Positions 10,441 through 35,491 of a stretch of 58,840 bases of DNA are shown in pieces. The stretch's first letter is position 1. Every line of letters starts with the position of its first letter. Made by a program: the position numbers and the translations under genes. The stretch comes from an uncultured Clostridia bacterium (lineage in GTDB: Bacteria > Bacillota > Clostridia > TANB77 > CAG-508): positions 1-58,840 of the forward strand of contig CANQZU010000002.1 of the NCBI GenBank assembly GCA_947628415.1, read 5' to 3'. The notes beneath the pieces were generated by a model. The model did not search any database. It was not told the origin of the DNA and worked only from the letters and a program-made list of their open reading frames with translations.

Positions 10441-10784
10441 ATTCTACATCCTATCATATACGCGCATATTTGATATCTACCTATAAGAGTCAATAATATA
10501 TCAAAAATGTTTCATTATAATAAATAATTTAAATATGTTTTCGTAAATTGATTCATATATTAATTATATTATTTATTGTACAACTGTGAAAAGAATATAA
10601 TTAAATTTTTTATATTTGTAATCTTATACATATTTTTTTGGAAATTTGTACCCTTTTTTAAAAAAATGGTAGTATACTATTGTAGATATCTATGATGAGT
10701 AAAATAAATTGAATAAAAAAAATAGATAAATCTGTAACGAATTTGAATTTTATACGTCATATATGTAGAAGGAGGATAAAAGTT

Positions 10785-11264
10785 ATGCAGGATATTGAAA
10801 AAATATATGAAGAATATTTTGAAACTGTAAACAAATACTTATTCTGTTTAACTCATAATAATGATCTATCTGAAGAACTTACACAAGAAACTTTTTATAA
10901 GGCAACAAAAAAAATTGATACATACAAAGGCGAATGTAAAATGTCAGTATGGTTATGTCAAATTGCTAAAAATCTTTGGTATGATCAATGTAGAAAAAAA
11001 CAAAAGATTATAAACGTTGAAGAAAAAGACAAACTCTATATAAATTCATTAGATTCATTAGAGGAACAAGTTATTTTAAATGATGAAAAAGTTTCGTTAT
11101 ACAAAAGAATGCAAAATTTAGATGAAAAAACAAGGGAAGTAATTTATCTGCGTATAACAGGAGAGTTAAGTTTTAAAGAAATAGGAATTATTTTGAATAA
11201 AACAGAAACCTGGGCAAGAGTAACTTTTTATAGAGGAAAAAAACTATTAAAGGAAGGTGATTAG
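10785..11264 (+). CDS. ECF-type sigma-70 family sigma factor
   Basis: AGGAGG RBS and ATG 10785. Region 2 (ELTQETFYKATKKIDTY, WLCQIAKNLWYD) and region 4 (LSFKEIGIILNKTETWARVTFYRGKKLL). Confidence 0.8.
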   Translation: MQDIEKIYEEYFETVNKYLFCLTHNNDLSEELTQETFYKATKKIDTYKGECKMSVWLCQIAKNLWYDQCRKKQKIINVEEKDKLYINSLDSLEEQVILNDEKVSLYKRMQNLDEKTREVIYLRITGELSFKEIGIILNKTETWARVTFYRGKKLLKEGD

Positions 11265-12165
11265 TATGAAAGAGAAAAAAAATTGTAAAATTATTCAAGA
11301 TTTATTACCAAGTTATATTGAAAAATTAACAAAAGATGAAACAAATTTATTTATTGAAGAACATTTAAATGAATGTGAGGAATGTAATAGTATTTGTAAA
11401 AAATTACAAAAAAATATAGACATAAATATAAATAAAGATAATAAAAAACAAATTGATTATTTAAAAAAATACAATAAAAAGATGAGAATTTTAAAATCAA
11501 TAATATTCATTATCATATTAGTATTTATTATAATTATTGGAAGAAAAGCTTATATTTTAATTAATCTTTCAGAAAAAGCAGAAAAAAGCATAAATAGCAA
11601 TAATTATTATGCAAGAGTATCACAGTATGAAGGAACTGCAATTCTTATAACTGAAACTTATAAAAAAGATCAAAAACAAATAAATATTCAAAACTATTAT
11701 GATAATCAAAATAATGAGCATACAAAATTAATTGAATATTCTGAAAATGGTACAACTAGACTTTACACTGAATCAAAAGATAAAAAAGTAGCAATATTAA
11801 ATGGAAATTCAGCAATGTTACAACCAATGAAGATGAGTGAATCATACATTACTTATTCAAAAAATATGTCAAGACTTATAAATAATACAATATTTTCATC
11901 TATGAGTGAAGTAAGATGTAATGGAAGAGATTGCTATTATTTTTCTAAACTAGAAACTGATATGTTAGGAGTTAGTGAAGTAAGTTCTGGTATTTATATT
12001 GATAAAGAAACTGGTCTTCCTATTAGAACTTCAGCAGCAACAGCTAAGAGTGATAAAGGTACTTCTGATCCAATTATAGAATTTTATTATGAATTTGATA
12101 AAGTTAATGATGAAGATATGAAGGAACCAGACATATCACAATATATTATTGAAGATAAAGATTAA
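11257..12165 (+). CDS. Zinc-binding (ZAS-type) anti-sigma factor, single-pass membrane protein
   Basis: Overlaps the sigma gene stop. Contains H-x3-C-x2-C (EEHLNECEEC) and one TM helix (ILKSIIFIIILVFIIIIG). The start could instead be ATG 11266. Confidence 0.65.
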   Translation: MISMKEKKNCKIIQDLLPSYIEKLTKDETNLFIEEHLNECEECNSICKKLQKNIDININKDNKKQIDYLKKYNKKMRILKSIIFIIILVFIIIIGRKAYILINLSEKAEKSINSNNYYARVSQYEGTAILITETYKKDQKQINIQNYYDNQNNEHTKLIEYSENGTTRLYTESKDKKVAILNGNSAMLQPMKMSESYITYSKNMSRLINNTIFSSMSEVRCNGRDCYYFSKLETDMLGVSEVSSGIYIDKETGLPIRTSAATAKSDKGTSDPIIEFYYEFDKVNDEDMKEPDISQYIIEDKD

Positions 12166-12223
12166 TGGTAAAATTAAATTTATATAAAGGCTTAGAGAGA
12201 AGATTAGATATATTAAAAGGAAA

Positions 12224-12251
12224 GAAAAGGTCTGATAAATCAGACCTTTTC
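12224..12251. terminator. Bidirectional intrinsic terminator between convergent genes
   Basis: Stem GAAAAGGTCTGA, loop TAAA, stem TCAGACCTTTTC. Confidence 0.8.
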
Positions 12252-12254
12252 TAC

Positions 12255-12267
12255 ATAGGGCATTAAT
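12255..12267. repeat. Arm of a perfect 13-bp inverted repeat flanking G+C-rich cassette 2 (ATAGGGCATTAAT)
   Basis: Exact reverse complement of 12871-12883. It lies 3 nt from the terminator. Confidence 0.85.
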
Positions 12268-12311
12268 TGATTATTAGTTAATTGTTGGCTGCGAAAAATT
12301 ATTTGATGATA

Positions 12312-12851
12312 TTACTGGTACATCCAGCACATAACTCTCATACCTACAGTTGTGTAACCATCAAAGTGAACCGTATAGTTACCGACAGTTGCATTTAACA
12401 ACTGTAAATGCACATCTCCATCAGAAGGGTAAACCTTCTTTGTATTTAGCACTATCAATCCCAATGGATTGATCATATAGATCTGTGCGTAAGATTGATT
12501 GGATGAAGATTCAACCTTCCAAGTTACACCTGTTTTGCCTGTATAAGTGCAGGGAACTGTGAAAGTTTGACCAAAGCTGGTCTTATCCACCCATTTGTTG
12601 CCGTAGTTGCTTTCGTTTACGAGCGCCGGTGCCACTGGGGAACTATCGCCCTTAGATTGATAGAGAACAACATTTTCATCCTGATACAGGATTTTAATGT
12701 TATTATCTGTGCTTGAAACAGCTTCAGCTGATGCAGACGGATTTACGCTGTCATCTTCAACTGAAGCAGCCTGAGCCGATGCTGCCATAGAGGAACTCAT
12801 AAGCAAGCTCAAACTCAAGCATACTGCGAGTAACCGCTTAATGTTTTTCAT
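12312..12851 (-). CDS. Small secreted protein, G+C-rich relative to its surroundings, unknown function
   Basis: Start moved to MKNIKRLLAV (ATG 12851), after a GGAGG RBS. Signal peptide ends ..SSSMAASAQA. The mature part is beta-rich. Uses CGG as Arg at 12834-12836. Confidence 0.8.
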   Translation of the reverse strand: MKNIKRLLAVCLSLSLLMSSSMAASAQAASVEDDSVNPSASAEAVSSTDNNIKILYQDENVVLYQSKGDSSPVAPALVNESNYGNKWVDKTSFGQTFTVPCTYTGKTGVTWKVESSSNQSYAQIYMINPLGLIVLNTKKVYPSDGDVHLQLLNATVGNYTVHFDGYTTVGMRVMCWMYQ

Positions 12852-12870
12852 AATAAAAATACCTCCATTC

Positions 12871-12883
12871 ATTAATGCCCTAT
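12871..12883. repeat. Arm of the 13-bp inverted repeat flanking cassette 2 (ATTAATGCCCTAT)
   Basis: Exact reverse complement of 12255-12267. It lies 4 nt upstream of the RBS on the coding strand. Confidence 0.85.
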
Positions 12884-12982
12884 AATTGCAACATGTTGTA
12901 AAAACAACGTAATTATATTTTATCGAAAATATTCCCTAAAATCAATAAAAAAAGCCTAAAAAGTCCACAATTCATCGCAATT

Positions 12983-13029
12983 TTCGACAAAAATGACAAT
13001 GTATGACAAGTTACGACAATCCATGACAA
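12983..13029. promoter_or_regulatory. Five helically phased YGACAA repeats. The first is an exact Spo0A-box complement (TTCGACA).
   Basis: CGACAA at 12985, TGACAA at 12994, TGACAA at 13004, CGACAA at 13014 and TGACAA at 13024. Spacings are 9, 10, 10 and 10 bp. The array lies upstream of cassette 2. Confidence 0.55.
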
Positions 13030-13167
13030 ATTTAATCTAATTTTAATTCAATTATGAACATTTATTGTCATTAAAAAGTAGATTAATCTAATAATTAATA
13101 ACTTCCATTATACTTATAAATTTATAAAATAAAAAAGCCTATTCCCAAAAGAGAATAGACCTTTTAA

Positions 13168-14243
13168 TTAAGCTGCTTTATTTAATGTATAATTAACATT
13201 AAACTTTTCTTCAAAAATATCTTTATAATTATCAATATATTTAATATCAATATTATAATTAAGTGGTATCAAGTTTCTTAATATACGATTAATAATATAA
13301 TCCAAGTTTTCATTTGCTTGTGATAATCTTATAACGAATATAATATTTTTCACATTAGTTTTTTCAATAGCACGTAAGATAATATATGAATTTGATATAT
13401 TTTGAAATGCAATTAGAGGTGTATCGTAGTTTTCTCTAATTAAATTTCCTAAAATAAAATTATCAGTTATTATTACATCTCCTGAATTTTCTTCTAAATT
13501 ACTTGTCATAATCCAACTCTTGGCCTTTGTTCCATTTATTTTGTTATTACTAGAAAACCATATATCTTGATTATTATTAAATGGTTTATCTAAATGAATT
13601 GATAGTCCTTGTATAAGTCCGTTCTTATCAAATACTGGTACAAAAAAGCCTTCAAAATTATTAAAACACCAATTAAAATCTCCCTCCTGAAAGAAACCAG
13701 GAATTCCGTGCTAGATTAAATTTTTTTGACAAACAATTAGCAATTAACCTTCTTTTTATATAATTTCTTGGAACACTTCTATATAAATCAAGTTCGATAG
13801 AGGTATCCAAAAATCCCATATTTCTCAAAGATCGTTTATGGTTGCTTTCTAATTTTAACATTCCTAGCAATTCTCTATATACTGCATCTCTTAATTCGAT
13901 ATCTGCTAATAAGTTTATAGGACTAATTTCTATTTGTGATTTATTAAGAGAAAAGCATTCCCTATCTAATAATTCACGATATGCCTTTTTATTATCTATT
14001 CCTTTTACTTTAGCATAAAGTCCAATAGAATAACCACCAGCACCACATCTTGAGCAACAATATTTATTTGTTTGAGAATTTAAACTCATTGTAGGTATTT
14101 TGCTATTTTTGTTATAACCGACAAAACGGGCAAATTACTTTAGTTTCAAAACCTCTTTCTTCAATGATTTCTAAACATAGGTGATATGCTACATTTAATA
14201 TATTTATATGTTTTTTTACCTCTTGATAATCTAATAAATCCAT
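13168..14243 (-). CDS. Primase-like protein (zinc-binding N-terminus plus Toprim-like C-terminal half), ~357 aa. It needs two +1 shifts at CGG.
   Basis: ATG 14243 (MDLLDYQEVKKH..). Cys motifs ICPFC and CCSRCGAGG. The frames join by skipping the C at CGG 14118-14120 (PFC-G-YNKNSKIPTMS) and at CGG 13706-13708 (NLA-G-IPGFFQEGDF). The C-terminal half is paralogous to 9756..10205. Confidence 0.65.
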
Positions 14244-20399: not shown

Positions 20400-20636
20400 A
20401 TGGATTTACAACAAGCATTAAAATGTAGAATATTAGATTTATGTAAGAAGCATAATGTAACAATTAATGGGTTAGCAATGTTATCAGGAATGCCACAATC
20501 GACTTTAAATAGTTTAATTGATGGTTCTAGTAAAAATCCCAAGTTGTTAACTATTTTAAGGTTATGTTTAGGATTAAATATGGAGCTAAAAGAGTTTTTT
20601 GATGATTCAATTTTTAAGAATTTAGATGATGAATAG
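20400..20636 (+). CDS. XRE-family HTH regulator, located inside the intron
   Basis: HTH region ILDLCKKHNVTINGLAMLSGMPQSTLNSLIDG. Divergent from 19910..20275. Its 3' end overlaps the RT stop by 23 nt. Confidence 0.65.
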   Translation: MDLQQALKCRILDLCKKHNVTINGLAMLSGMPQSTLNSLIDGSSKNPKLLTILRLCLGLNMELKEFFDDSIFKNLDDE

Positions 20637-22503
20637 CTGTTATTGTTGGTAGTTTTGCATACTCTCTTAACTTGTTTAACTTTTCAATTTGCTTGCTATT
20701 GAGTTTTAATTTTTTTAAGTATTTTGATATAACTTCATTGTTATTTGCATGTATAAGTCTATGTACATTTTCTGTTAGGAATGTTAGATTATTGTAATTA
20801 TCTGTTCCTCCATTTTTTATAGGCTTGATATGATGACAGTGCATTTTGCCAATTTTTAATGTTTCTCCTGTTATATAGCATTTTCCTTTTTGTGCTACGT
20901 ATACGGCTAGTCTATTGTCATTGTATTCAATGCTTTTGTTAGGAATATAGTTTTTCATTATATAAATTAGCATATATGGATTAATGTTCTCGAGTTCTTT
21001 GTATATTTCTTTTCTACCTTCCTTTGTGTATTTATTAACTTTTGATTTTTTGTACATAGGTCGTTTATGTTTAACATATCCAATAGGTAATATTACAGAG
21101 TTAAATATATATCTTATTTGTTCGCTTTTGTAATATTTAATAGGTAGGCATTTTGTTTTGTTATTATCTTTTGGTGTTTTCCTAATACCATCTATTTTTT
21201 TGAGTTCTTTGTTGACTATAAAGGCAATTTCTTTTATTTGTTTTGTTATGTGCGTTGCCATGTTGTAATAGTTGTGCACTCCCATAACATAAGCATTATA
21301 GTTATTGATTGTTTTATAGTTTTTTGTACTGTCAGTACATTTCTTGATTTCTTTGATATGTTCTTTTACTTTGGATTTAATTCTTTTGAATGCTTTATCG
21401 TTGATGTATGATTTTATAACGTAATTGTCCTTTCCGTTTTTCTTTTTGCCTTTTTTTCTTGCTGTTATTTTTATGCCTAGAAATTCTGAGTAATGTCGAT
21501 GGATATTGACAATTTTTGATTTTTCCTCGTTTATGTCTAAGCCTAATCTTTCTTTTAGCCACATTTTTGTTGCAATGAAAATTCGTTCTGCATCATTTTT
21601 GTTATTACAAAATATTTTGAAATCATCTGCATATCTAACAATAAAACATTCTTTAAGTTTTGTGGTGGTTCTTAGTGCTCTGTATGTTCCTCCTCGACCT
21701 GTTCGGTTACTTGTATTGTATTTGTGTCTGGTTGGAATATTTTCCCACTGGCTCGCGATCCACCAGTCTAATTCATTAAGTACAATGTTTGCAAATAATG
21801 GGGATATTATACCTCCTTGTGGTGTGCCTTTTTCTGGAAAACCAATTCCTGCTATTTCGGCTTTTAACATTGCTGATATAATGCTTATTAGCTTTTTGTC
21901 TCTGATGCCTAGCGACCACATTTGTTTTAGTAATTTTGCGTGTTGAACATTGTCAAAGAAACCTTTTATATCAATATCAATAACATATTGTAAGTTGTTT
22001 ATTTGTATATGTCTGTATGTTTGTGCAATAGCATGTTCCGCACTTCTGCATGGTCTAAATCCATTATTTCTTTCATGAAATTTTGCTTCGCATATTGGTT
22101 CTAATACTTGTAAAATACTTTGTTGTATTATTCTGTCAATAATTGTTGGTATTCCCAATGGTCTGGTTTTCCCATTTGGTTTTGGGATTTCAACTCTTCT
22201 AACTGCTTTTGGCTCATACCATTCAAGTTTTTTCCTAATATGTTTAATTATATTTTCTGTTTTCCACCTTGATATGTCATTAATGGTTAATTTATCCGTA
22301 CCTGCTGTTTTGCTACCTTTATTTTTTTTAATATTTCGATATGCAAGTAGTATATTTTCTTCAAGGGTGATTATGTCCATAAGTTTTGTAAAGACTTTAT
22401 TATTCTTGCTCTGTTGATATAGTTTGTCTTGAATTTCTTGAAAATTGTAATACTCTGCATTTCTTAATTTTTTTATTTTTGTTGCTTTTCTTTTTGTTGT
22501 CAA
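20614..22503 (-). CDS. Group II intron reverse transcriptase/maturase with an HNH endonuclease domain
   Basis: RT motifs RPLGIPTIIDRIIQ and FIVRYADDFKIF, a maturase X region, and HNH (HCHHIKPIKNGGTDNYNNL..H). Confidence 0.9.
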   Translation of the reverse strand: MTTKRKATKIKKLRNAEYYNFQEIQDKLYQQSKNNKVFTKLMDIITLEENILLAYRNIKKNKGSKTAGTDKLTINDISRWKTENIIKHIRKKLEWYEPKAVRRVEIPKPNGKTRPLGIPTIIDRIIQQSILQVLEPICEAKFHERNNGFRPCRSAEHAIAQTYRHIQINNLQYVIDIDIKGFFDNVQHAKLLKQMWSLGIRDKKLISIISAMLKAEIAGIGFPEKGTPQGGIISPLFANIVLNELDWWIASQWENIPTRHKYNTSNRTGRGGTYRALRTTTKLKECFIVRYADDFKIFCNNKNDAERIFIATKMWLKERLGLDINEEKSKIVNIHRHYSEFLGIKITARKKGKKKNGKDNYVIKSYINDKAFKRIKSKVKEHIKEIKKCTDSTKNYKTINNYNAYVMGVHNYYNMATHITKQIKEIAFIVNKELKKIDGIRKTPKDNNKTKCLPIKYYKSEQIRYIFNSVILPIGYVKHKRPMYKKSKVNKYTKEGRKEIYKELENINPYMLIYIMKNYIPNKSIEYNDNRLAVYVAQKGKCYITGETLKIGKMHCHHIKPIKNGGTDNYNNLTFLTENVHRLIHANNNEVISKYLKKLKLNSKQIEKLNKLREYAKLPTITAIHHLNS

Positions 22504-29347: not shown

Positions 29348-30220
29348 ATGATAGAAAAATTTGTTGAATATATGAAAAGAAAAAGTTTATCAGAAAATAC
29401 ATATAATAGTTACGCTAATGATGTGAAAATATTTAAACAATATTATGAAGATTCCTATGGTGAAGAATTAAATACTCTTGTTCATGCAGATATAAAAATG
29501 TATTGCAATTTCTTGTTAAAAGATAATATTTCAAGTACAAGCATAAATAGAAAACTTGCAGCATTGAAGCAGTATAATTTATTTTTAATAGAGGAAGGCA
29601 TACAGAAAGATATTGTTATATTAGACAAAGACTATATAAAGATTCAAAGATCAATGATAAATAAGATAATTCCATCAGTACAAGAAATAAACAAATTAAA
29701 ACATTTTGCTTGTAGAGATGAGAAAAATGCTAAAAGAGATTTTTGCTTTTTATCAATACTTATCTATGGTGGACTTAGAGAAAGTGAAATAGTTACAATA
29801 AGATTAACAGATATAAAATTAGAAGAAAAGTTTATTAACATTATAGGAAAGGGAAACAAGTTTAGACAGGTAGTAATAAATAATTTAATGTATGATGCTT
29901 TATCAGAATACATAGAAGAAAGAAAATCAATAGATACTATCAATCCTTATTTGTTTGTAGGACAAAAAAACAAAAATAGCAAGGAGCCACTTAATAGGAA
30001 TTTTTGTAATAGATTATTAGATAAATATAAAGATTTATGCAAAATTGAAAAATTGCATCCTCATATGTTAAGGTCATTCTTTTGTTCGAATGCTCTGCAT
30101 AATGCTGGATATAGCATAGACCAAGTTGCAAATCAAGCAGGGCATAGTAGTCTTAACACTACAAAAGGGTATCTTGTTACAAATCAAGAAGATCTAATTT
30201 CTTTAGCTAATAAATTGTAG
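29348..30220 (+). CDS. Tyrosine site-specific recombinase, XerC/D-like
   Basis: N-terminal SAM-like core-binding domain. Catalytic motifs GGLRESE, HPHMLRSFF and GHSSLNTTKGY. Confidence 0.85.
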   Translation: MIEKFVEYMKRKSLSENTYNSYANDVKIFKQYYEDSYGEELNTLVHADIKMYCNFLLKDNISSTSINRKLAALKQYNLFLIEEGIQKDIVILDKDYIKIQRSMINKIIPSVQEINKLKHFACRDEKNAKRDFCFLSILIYGGLRESEIVTIRLTDIKLEEKFINIIGKGNKFRQVVINNLMYDALSEYIEERKSIDTINPYLFVGQKNKNSKEPLNRNFCNRLLDKYKDLCKIEKLHPHMLRSFFCSNALHNAGYSIDQVANQAGHSSLNTTKGYLVTNQEDLISLANKL

Positions 30221-34060: not shown

Positions 34061-35491
34061 ATGTTAGAAGAAGCAAGATATCAAAAATTAATTAAAAGGA
34101 TAAAGGATTTAACAAGGAAATATGGAATATCAGAAGATATTTCTTATTCTTTACAGGAAAAAGATAATATATATCAATGTGTAATCAGATATCAGAAAAA
34201 TGAAAGATGGAATCAATTATGGTCATCTACTGGTTTAAAAGTAGAAAAGGGAAATTTAAGAAATGCAAAAAAAACAGCAGAAGAAATAGCTAATTTATTT
34301 AAACAAACGGTAAGAGAAAATAATATTGAAAGAAAAAAACAAAATATTGATATTATTGATTTTCAAAGTATAGTTGAATTAAACACAACGAATTATAATA
34401 CAAATAAAACAACAAAGGCAGATTGGGATTTTTACAAATACATGGAATTTTGGTTGTATAAAGTAATTAAAAAGTCAGTAGATTTAGATACATTTAATGG
34501 TTATGAAAGAAATGTCACTAGGAGAATGAAAGACTATTTCATAATGGATGAACACAAAAAAGCAGTAAAAGAGATAACCGCAGATGACTTAGAAGATTTT
34601 TATGATTATTTAAGAGACAATAATTTAAAAAATTCAACCATAGATCACTATAATGATAATATTAGTAGTGCTTTTAAATATTTATTAAGGAAAAAAGTAG
34701 TACGATACAATCCAACTGATTTAATTGAGCCAATTACTGTAGAAGTAGTAGAAGTAAATACTTATAATAAAAAAGAAATATCAGAATTATTTGAAATTTT
34801 AAAAGGAGATCCCATAGAACTGGCTACATATATTGATGCATATTACGGATTAAGAAGAAGTGAAATAATTGGATTAAGAGAGCAAGTATTTGATTTTGAA
34901 AATGATAACTTTATTATTAATCATGTAGCAATACAAAATGATGGAAAAAATAACAAAGAAAAAGTATATTTTAAAGATAAAACAAAATCAAAAAAAGGTT
35001 ATAGAAGTTTTCCGTTATTCCCAGGAATAAAAAGAATGATTTTAAAAAAACTAGAAAGAATTGAAGAATGTAAAAAAATTTTTGGTAATTCGTATAATCA
35101 TAAATATGATGGATATATTTTTGTCCATGATAATGGAGATATAATACAACCCAATTATTTTACAAAAAGATTTGATAAAATCATAAAAAGAAATGGCTTG
35201 AAAAAAATAACACCTCATGGATTAAGGCATAGTATAGCAACTTTATTACATTTAGAAGGAGTAGATATTAGAGATTTACAAGATTGGTTAGGGCATCAAA
35301 ATATTAGTTCTACTAATAGATATACTAGAAGTGATTACAAGAAACAAGTTGCGACTGCTAATGTTGTAGCAAAAATATTTGGAGATTTTAATATTGATAT
35401 GGAGAGTAAAAAAACAAAAAGATTTATTGTTAAAAAAAAGAATATTCATACCCCACATATGAATATTCCAAGTAATTTAGGTGGTTTATAG
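34061..35491 (+). CDS. int: Tyrosine integrase (Tn916 Int-like class)
   Basis: [19 protein letters not shown] and [13 protein letters not shown]. It has a long N-terminal arm-binding region and lies adjacent to the tRNA fragment. Confidence 0.85.

Follow-up and report, generated by a model that had tools for sequence, protein, structure and literature searches.

Intramolecular interactions that join the 5' untranslated region (UTR) of a bacterial mRNA to its 3' UTR are known in only a handful of cases, namely hbs, icaR and RNAIII/hld, and a 2021 review asks whether the mechanism extends to other genes (PMC7821165). In the hbs mRNA of Bacillus subtilis, a 14-nt segment just past a 5' hairpin pairs with its complement just before the terminator (PMC5737220), and single and compensatory mutants show that this pairing limits cleavage of the leader by RNase Y and slows decay (Braun, Durand & Condon 2017, PMC5737220). 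In icaR of Staphylococcus aureus (Ruiz de los Mozos 2013), a UCCCC anti-Shine-Dalgarno sequence base-pairs to the ribosome-binding site, which blocks initiation and makes an RNase III substrate (as summarised in PMC7821165), and intramolecular pairing across several hundred nucleotides takes place in vivo in B. subtilis mRNAs (PMC12697547). The stretch of DNA analysed here, 58,840 nucleotides of contig CANQZU010000002.1 from an uncultured Clostridia bacterium (hereafter the window), contains two genes for small secreted proteins, gene 1 and gene 2, each bracketed by an inverted repeat. The arms of these repeats are very probably a selected, strand-specific helix of the sense-strand RNA and not a DNA element, and the reading preferred here, with a probability of about 0.6, is that they form a 5'UTR-3'UTR helix that closes one monocistronic mRNA and stabilises the transcript.

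Anatomy of the two bracketed genes

At the gene-2 locus, ATAGGGCATTAAT at 12255-12267 has its exact reverse complement at 12871-12883, so that a 13-bp inverted repeat encloses a G+C-rich signal-peptide gene, as the first-pass annotation of this DNA had noticed. The window holds no third copy of the arm at ≤1 mismatch, and there is no target-site duplication around the repeat, the flanks of which differ. In the order of the predicted transcript, the features are the following:

12917..12945, minus strand: sigmaA-type promoter-like site, TTGATT-17 nt-TAAAAT (promoter scan)
12895..12908, minus strand: 5' hairpin of the predicted mRNA, GTTGT-TTTT-ACAAC, in the minimum free energy (MFE) and centroid folds, 11 nt 5' of the 5' arm
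12871..12883, minus strand: 5' arm, in mRNA sense AUAGGGCAUUAAU, exact repeat, mean pair probability 0.96 in the fold of the 709-nt transcript
12862..12866, minus strand: Shine-Dalgarno sequence GGAGG of gene 2, read from the sequence, outside the helix
12312..12851, minus strand: gene 2, open reading frame (ORF) for a 179-aa secreted protein of no Pfam family, GC 0.419, GC at third codon positions (GC3) 0.417
12273..12282, minus strand: 3'UTR motif ATTAACTAAT, common to the gene-1 3'UTR (motif count)
12255..12267, minus strand: 3' arm, in mRNA sense AUUAAUGCCCUAU, 44 nt past the stop codon, with the terminator stem 2-4 nt further on
12223..12252: intrinsic terminator hairpin of gene 2 (minus-strand terminator call and fold)

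One arm had been placed just upstream of the ribosome-binding site and the other beside a terminator, and indeed the 5' arm ends 4 nt before GGAGG and the 3' arm directly precedes the hairpin at 12252-12223. Transcription is predicted to start near 12910, and both arms would thus lie on the same transcript, with the predicted promoter (12945-12917) before the 5' arm and the terminator (12252-12223), likewise a predicted end, past the 3' arm. The promoter element TTGATT...TGATAAAAT is kept in three homologous loci (L001, L015 and L019), and hairpins of other sequence stand, by eye, at the equivalent place in these loci, in L022 and in most loci with relatives of gene 1. The terminator had been described as bidirectional: the minus-strand part of this description stands, being called by the terminator scan, while on the plus strand inspection by eye gives only a shorter stem (GGTCTGA/TCAGACC) with TTTTCT after it, and it is because TTTTCT follows this stem that the hairpin probably also ends a convergent operon for an extracytoplasmic function (ECF) sigma factor and its anti-sigma factor.

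Upstream of the promoter, at 12983-13029 in minus-strand sense, TTGTCAT/TGTCGAA repeats with a 10-bp periodicity resemble the "0A boxes" of Spo0A, and L001 has TGTCGAA and an inverted TTCGACA at the same place; Spo0A itself, or the Spo0A-like protein of the element, may control gene 2. No convincing ECF-type promoter is visible by eye 5' of gene 2, and ECF control of this gene is unsupported because its conserved promoter is sigmaA-like.

The second unit that had been described, a "cassette 1" of the same layout with other arms, is equally real, and lies convergent with genes for a PepSY anti-sigma and an ECF sigma factor. Specifically, GGTTAGAAATAGGA at 6660-6673 and 7223-7236 brackets gene 1:

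6660..6673, plus strand: gene-1 5' arm, GGUUAGAAAUAGGA, pair probability 0.99
6702..7184, plus strand: gene 1, ORF for a 160-aa secreted protein of no Pfam family, GC3 0.366
7223..7236, plus strand: gene-1 3' arm, with the terminator hairpin 7238-7263 directly after it

The helix is present in both the MFE and the centroid structures of the full predicted transcripts of gene 1 and gene 2. Among 19 non-redundant loci, 18 give a mean pair probability of 0.87-1.00, for transcripts of about 620-710 nt and spans of 530-616 nt between the arms. No Rfam family is found in positions 5500-13500 at E≤1.

Covariation and strand specificity of the helix

Comparison with homologous loci shows the helix to be conserved by covariation, strand-specific and thermodynamically dominant. 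The arms are present for both protein families in the homologous loci, where the first-pass annotation had proposed to look for them, so that an objection built on their absence fails. The recurring, non-chance architecture that it had suspected is likewise borne out, since the arms recur in relatives of both proteins and the linkage to ECF sigma/anti-sigma genes is conserved. The general layout of the homologues comprises a TATAAT-like -10 element, a 5' hairpin of variable sequence, 5-10 nt, and the 5' arm, and, at the other end, the 3' arm 1-21 nt (mostly 1-7) before the terminator.

Relatives of gene 2 (family 2) fall into 4 further protein clusters at 56-68% identity and a fifth relative, L027, at 48%; the only named genome records with such relatives are 2 metagenome-assembled genomes, of an uncultured Clostridium sp. 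and of Candidatus Merdicola. Three loci (L001, L002 and L026) are chromosomal, with genes for a copper ATPase and ATP-binding cassette (ABC) transporters, and in them the gene-2 homologue is convergent with homologous sigma/anti-sigma genes; the anti-sigma homologues of these loci have 72% identity, and the homologues of the sigma factor (sigma-2) have 79% in L001 and L026 and 68% in L027. The pair is upstream, in divergent orientation, in L027 and missing from L022-L025, and because the arms persist in both cases they track the gene and not its neighbours. The family-2 arms always lie just 5' of the Shine-Dalgarno sequence and just 5' of the terminator, and their sequences vary as follows:

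Window: 5' arm AUAGGGCAUUAAU, 3' arm AUUAAUGCCCUAU; perfect
L001: 5' arm CAUAGGGCAUUAAU, 3' arm AUUAAUGUCCUAUG; a G·U pair
L015: 5' arm CAUGGGACAUUAAU, 3' arm AUUAAUGUCCUAUG; A-U at the G·U position of L001, and a new G·U
L019: 5' arm CAUAGGACAUUAA, 3' arm UUAAUGUCCUAUG; A-U at the G·U position of L001
L027: 5' arm GAGCAUGAGACA, 3' arm UGUCUCAUGCUC; AG/CU changed to GA/UC

One helix position is therefore G-C in the window, G·U in L001 and A-U in L015 and L019, and at a protein identity of 48% L027 carries a double compensatory change, GCAUGAGACA / UGUCUCAUGC (AG/CT to GA/TC). The start codon of L027 was taken as 4935, which has a Shine-Dalgarno sequence, and not as the mechanical 4905. Covariation was scored on an unsupervised MAFFT alignment of the family-2 UTRs. 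In this alignment 88.7% of the cells pair, compared with 33-44% when the partners are slid, 6 pairs are altered on both sides, and the covariation score of 0.282 (0.156 in shuffled alignments) is reached in 0/500 shuffles.

Relatives of gene 1 (family 1) form 38 protein clusters, and a helix of 10-18 bp is found at 28 metagenome loci and in 3 further contexts, lying 22-39 nt 5' of the ATG and 7-76 nt past the stop codon. The arm pairs belong to about 10 mutually unrelated sequences, exemplified by GGUAGAGAGCUAGAA / UUCUAGCUUUCUACC, GAAAGUCAAGGAAU / AUUCCUUGACUUUC and AUGGAAAUUAGGAAAA / UUUUCCUGAUUUCCAU; in five arm classes the 3' arm begins merely 7-9 nt past the stop codon.

Where the helices depart from Watson-Crick pairing, the opposition is mostly G·U on the sense strand. 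Allowing G·T pairs lengthens the helices in 14 loci and allowing A·C in 3, with 6 ties; the helices average 13.2 when G·T is admitted and 10.9 when A·C is, as against 10.2 for strict Watson-Crick pairing. As an A·C opposition on the sense strand corresponds to G·U on the antisense strand, neutral decay or a constraint at the DNA level predicts symmetry; the asymmetry points to the sense RNA. A purine bias of the 5' arm (mean 71%) is moreover present in 10/11 independent arm classes.

Chance complementarity in AT-rich DNA deserves a check, since perfect inverted repeats of ≥13 nt within 1.5 kb number about a dozen in the window; the non-random element is the tight bracketing of an ORF by such a repeat. 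Scoring was confined to contiguous helices, and RNAduplex on whole flanks was dropped because it returned long interior loops and a null mean of -22 kcal/mol. Among 63 window ORFs scanned (mean 17.4, standard deviation 3.5) the gene-1 helix is the top score at 33, and on the same scale the gene-2 helix reaches 30-31, scored by hand since the mechanically called ORF has its start at an ATG further upstream, within the arm; the two are the best-scoring ORF-bracketing pairs of the window. A conservative cross-locus null gives an empirical p of about 0.006 for each of them and p<0.05 for 23/27 homologous loci of both families. Together with the compensatory changes, these figures leave chance with a practically negligible probability, and that reading is already refuted by the comparative sequence data.

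The two 3'UTRs also share a short motif. ATTAAYTART has 4 matches in the window, compared with 8.5 expected, and 2/4 are sense-strand matches in the 3'UTRs of gene 1 (7200-7209, plus strand) and gene 2 (12273-12282, minus strand), just 5' of the 3' arms; most 3'UTRs of the homologues, in either of the two unrelated families, contain strings like TTAATTAAC or TTAACTAAT. A search for pairing of the motif with the Shine-Dalgarno region finds no consistent complementarity.

Rival readings and a proposed function

The first-pass annotation had treated each unit as a cassette, that is, as a DNA unit delimited by its inverted repeat, and this part of the description is not supported: homology runs past both arms, the arm sequences co-vary and no inverted orientation is seen. 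One DNA-level version would have the arms act as an invertible switch, a recombinase flipping the segment between them relative to a promoter outside, with on/off phase variation as the result. A perfect repeat that encloses the ribosome-binding site and the ORF and leaves out the promoter would suit such a switch, as would the 2 tyrosine recombinases of the window (29348..30220; 34061..35491), which are however 17-22 kb distant, and chromosomal L001 has arms yet no recombinase within 6 kb. In addition, 8/8 independent assemblies of the locus have the forward junction and 0 the inverted one, with the proviso that assemblies can hide minority orientations, and the homologous loci all keep one orientation relative to their neighbours. 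The sites of a recombinase would be conserved, whereas the arms are wholly different among relatives, and strand specificity marks both the preference for G·U over A·C and the purine bias. The invertible switches of Clostridioides difficile (cwpV, flgB) and fimS resemble the present loci in having short inverted repeats, a few hundred base pairs apart, beside a gene; they differ in showing both orientations in populations, conserved repeats with a dedicated recombinase and, usually, an invertible promoter or leader, none of which is seen here. Inversion is consequently a very unlikely account of the arms.

Scarcely any credence can be given to the other DNA-level version, in which the arms would be the terminal inverted repeats of a non-autonomous transposon or insertion unit, similar to a miniature inverted-repeat transposable element, carrying a foreign G+C-rich gene. 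The composition does lend itself to this reading, with GC3 at 0.37 in gene 1 and 0.42 in gene 2 compared with 0.09-0.19 in 21 other window ORFs, and with short repeats near the composition boundary. The UTR segments inside the arms are nevertheless AT-rich (0.25-0.29 GC), so that the GC-rich island is the ORF alone. GC3 of the homologues ranges from 0.20 to 0.42, the close relative L056 having 0.20. Because the homologues span this range and the UTRs are AT-rich, the rise is lineage-specific and limited to the ORF, and it could stem from recent exchange with a higher-GC relative or from selection on the mRNA. The claims that the arms of the two units differ and that target-site duplications are missing are both correct, and the second, together with the lack of an extra copy of either arm in the window, speaks against transposition. 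The homology of the window to L001, L015 and L019 passes through both arms, reaching on one side across 12993-12892, with the promoter and the 0A-box-like repeats, and on the other across the terminator, the anti-sigma gene and the sigma gene down to 10671. Furthermore, the arms of close relatives differ yet stay complementary, unlike the shared terminal repeats of a transposase, and neither protein family is found in viral or plasmid collections. If a larger unit ever moved, its traces would be the 72% direct repeats that flank the sigma/anti-sigma/gene-2 block, and not the arms.

A helix formed in the RNA can thus be compared with the described systems. The layout is that of hbs, with the 5' arm between a 5' hairpin and the Shine-Dalgarno sequence and the 3' arm directly before the terminator hairpin, and further points in common are a monocistronic Firmicute mRNA (in the window a predicted one), the 13-14 nt of perfect complementarity and a strong Shine-Dalgarno sequence left free. 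The compensatory changes that support pairing have a natural counterpart here in the covariation and in the preference for G·U over A·C (14 vs 3 loci). The hbs pairing is experimentally tested (compensatory mutants, RNase Y, J1), whereas the window helix is a prediction from sequence; conversely, the hbs 3'UTR is reported not to be conserved among close relatives (PMC7821165), while the helix described here is kept by covariation in two unrelated families. Unlike hbs, the genes code for secreted beta-sandwich proteins beside ECF sigma/anti-sigma pairs, several of them on conjugative elements, and the helix is accompanied by the shared ATTAAYTART 3'UTR motif and by high GC3 limited to the ORF. 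The precursor stalks of rRNA are similar in that the flanks close a long RNA segment into a loop and co-vary between species; they differ in being longer, in flanking rRNA and in serving as RNase III processing sites, whereas the window helix encloses a protein-coding ORF.

It is because the layout matches the hbs 5'/3'-UTR interaction that a protective role is proposed, and, granted the helix, its effect would on this analysis rather probably be stabilisation. The transcript would comprise, in order, the sigmaA-type promoter, the 5' hairpin, the 5' arm, the Shine-Dalgarno sequence, the ORF, a 44-nt AT-rich 3'UTR, the 3' arm and the terminator. Once transcribed, the 3' arm would pair with the 5' arm through 13 Watson-Crick pairs and a flanking U·G, looping out a coding region of roughly 600 nt and stacking beside the terminator. 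Such a helix may keep endonucleases, RNase Y for instance, away from the single-stranded A/U-rich stretches that lie between the 5' hairpin and the ribosome-binding site and ahead of the terminator. As a consequence, RNase J1 would be denied access at the 5' side and exonucleases at the 3' side. The expected outcome would be a long-lived, well-translated mRNA and high expression of a small secreted protein. Gene 1 and the relatives of both genes would share the design, the ECF pair being a neighbour of the helix and not a part of it.

The same RNA helix could alternatively have another job, either as a site of processing or decay (cut, for example, by RNase III, on the pattern of icaR) or as a translation-coupled switch, which is a less likely candidate. 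A helix of 13-18 bp is in principle long enough for a double-strand-specific nuclease, a terminating ribosome would open those helices in which the 3' arm begins 7-9 nt past the stop codon (five family-1 classes), and the icaR precedent demonstrates that 5'/3' pairing can be inhibitory (PMC7821165). The icaR mRNA, too, is a Firmicute message with intramolecular 3'UTR-5'UTR pairing; in the window and its homologues, unlike icaR, the arms end 4-25 nt 5' of the Shine-Dalgarno sequence, which is not in the helix, and pairing of the icaR type at that sequence is not found, the MFE fold of gene 2 adding only a few weak extra pairs there. The combination of 5' hairpin, arm and terminator is instead that of hbs, where pairing protects the mRNA, even if the two functions are not separable by sequence data.

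Several observations weigh against the stabilising 5'UTR-3'UTR helix. The family-1 helices were located by a complementarity search and their register is thus fitted, a bias for which the cross-locus null controls; family 2 amounts to only 6 distinct sequences, and most of its helix positions are conserved and not co-varying. L018 (about 2900-3000), which has the same protein as L019 and another upstream region, has lost the 5' arm and the promoter region and keeps the 3' arm, which makes it a natural "arm deletion" variant, and in L045 and L034 the helix is absent or weakly predicted, so that it is not indispensable. The stabilising role itself leans on one characterised analogue, and the sequences would suit a regulatory or processing role equally well. 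Lastly, the transcript ends, among them the start site, and the formation of the helix in vivo are predictions.

The comparative data provide evidence for selection on mRNA-closing helices in two unrelated families and in many uncultured gut Clostridia. The helices of gene 1 and gene 2 would accordingly join the sparsely populated group of hbs-type 5'/3'-UTR interactions, with support from natural covariation, and the natural variants constitute a set for testing helix function. For annotation, the lesson is that short perfect inverted repeats around a single gene are not automatically mobile or invertible DNA.

The secreted proteins, the ECF modules and the surrounding element

The neighbours of the two genes are the following:

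10785..11264, plus strand: ECF sigma factor (sigma-2), Pfam Sigma70_r2 and Sigma70_r4_2
11266..12165, plus strand: anti-sigma factor of the zf-HC2 type (Pfam zf-HC2), spanning the membrane once and bearing an extracytoplasmic domain
7270..8418, minus strand: PepSY-domain anti-sigma factor (Pfam), convergent with gene 1
8393..8929, minus strand: ECF sigma-1 (Pfam), convergent with gene 1

The convergent ECF sigma/anti-sigma operon of the first-pass annotation is confirmed by these Pfam matches: sigma-2 has regions 2 and 4 only and is followed by a membrane anti-sigma with an N-terminal zinc-binding HC2 domain and a hydrophobic segment visible in the translation. The two genes are convergent with gene 2 and abut, with the single nucleotide 11265 between them, the stop codon TAG of the sigma gene being 11262-11264. 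About 10734-10760 on the plus strand, 5' of sigma-2, TGTAAC-N16-CGTC looks by eye like an autoregulated ECF-type promoter (AAC ... CGT).

Both secreted-protein genes are conserved neighbours of ECF sigma/anti-sigma genes, and family 1 usually has a Spo0A_C-type regulator as well: homologues of sigma-1, of the PepSY anti-sigma and of this regulator lie ≤3 kb from nearly every gene-1 homologue (L028-L063), in variable order. They make up a conserved four-gene module, which is often beside conjugation genes (PcfJ, type IV secretion system coupling protein, RepA_N). The promoters ahead of the secreted genes are nonetheless sigmaA-like and not ECF-like. In L015, an IS91-family element (Y2_Tnp and Zn_Tnp_IS91, 1568-2982) sits between the terminator and the anti-sigma gene, and the arms and the terminator are intact.

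Pfam returns no matches for either secreted protein. The gene-2 product starts with MKNIKRLLAVCLSLSLLMSSSMAASAQA, which reads as a signal peptide; in the AlphaFold2 model residues 4-16 are helical, a disordered linker comes next and the C-terminal part is a beta-sandwich, with a predicted local distance difference test (pLDDT) score >90 for residues 80-179; the gene-1 product is modelled as a compact jelly-roll (pLDDT 87.5). The suggested comparison of the two folds gives a divided answer, in that both are predicted beta-sandwiches and no homology is detectable beyond the signal peptides, which are all that BLASTP and hhalign align. Foldseek against the PDB yields for both proteins only generic beta-sandwich matches (GOLD domain, collagen-binding domain, TNF-like jelly roll) with template modelling (TM) scores of 0.3-0.45. 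The reading of CGG as Arg at codon 6 of gene 2 is accurate, and R6 is invariant in the family alignment, but this is merely the standard code.

A bolder and rather doubtful proposal is that the 5' hairpin, the ORF-closing co-varying helix, ATTAAYTART, the helix-stacked terminator and the raised-GC3 ORF in a 26% GC element make up a dedicated design for a "hyper-stable mRNA", at which two unrelated families of small secreted beta-sandwich proteins arrived by convergent evolution. If so, the mRNA architecture would be tied to the biology of the module and would not be a one-off as in hbs, for example if a secreted ligand of the anti-sigma sensor, or a decoy for it, were made from a long-lived message. 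The secreted proteins are the conserved third partner of ECF sigma/anti-sigma modules, and in family 1 also of a Spo0A-like regulator, on conjugative elements and chromosomes of gut Clostridia, the module being defined by an ECF sigma, an anti-sigma, a secreted beta-sandwich protein and sometimes a Spo0A-like regulator.

The window as a whole has 0.26 GC and is a conjugative element from a low-GC Clostridium-like organism, with Pfam matches to PcfJ, a VirB4/TraC-like protein, DnaG primase, NlpC/P60 and a SpaA/TED (thioester) adhesin, in addition to the 2 tyrosine recombinases and the reverse transcriptase of a group II intron. A phage origin was considered and rejected, as megablast against a phage collection gives 0 matches and the Pfam content is conjugative instead.

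Some traces of the history of the locus are visible. On either side of the entire sigma-2/anti-sigma-2/gene-2 block lies one copy of a diverged direct repeat (about 72%; 9671-10172 and 13074-13584), the copies coding for paralogous proteins of 149 and 113 aa with 58% identity. Separately, sigma-1 has a second copy of its 5' end and promoter (8723-9021 vs 10234-10530) in the form of a 74-aa ORF with Sigma70_r2 only (10216..10440). The repeats and the sigma-1 copy suggest an old duplication or insertion as the origin of the second module. The Spo0A-like response regulator 5' of gene 1 (5811-6543) is split by a +1 frameshift near 5955, as judged against L056, the homologue of which is intact (243 aa), and its downstream 184-aa ORF retains the Spo0A_C domain; the split gene may be a pseudogene or reflect an assembly error. 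The group II intron-type reverse transcriptase (RVT_1 and HNH, 20614-22503, minus strand) forms another moderately GC-richer island.

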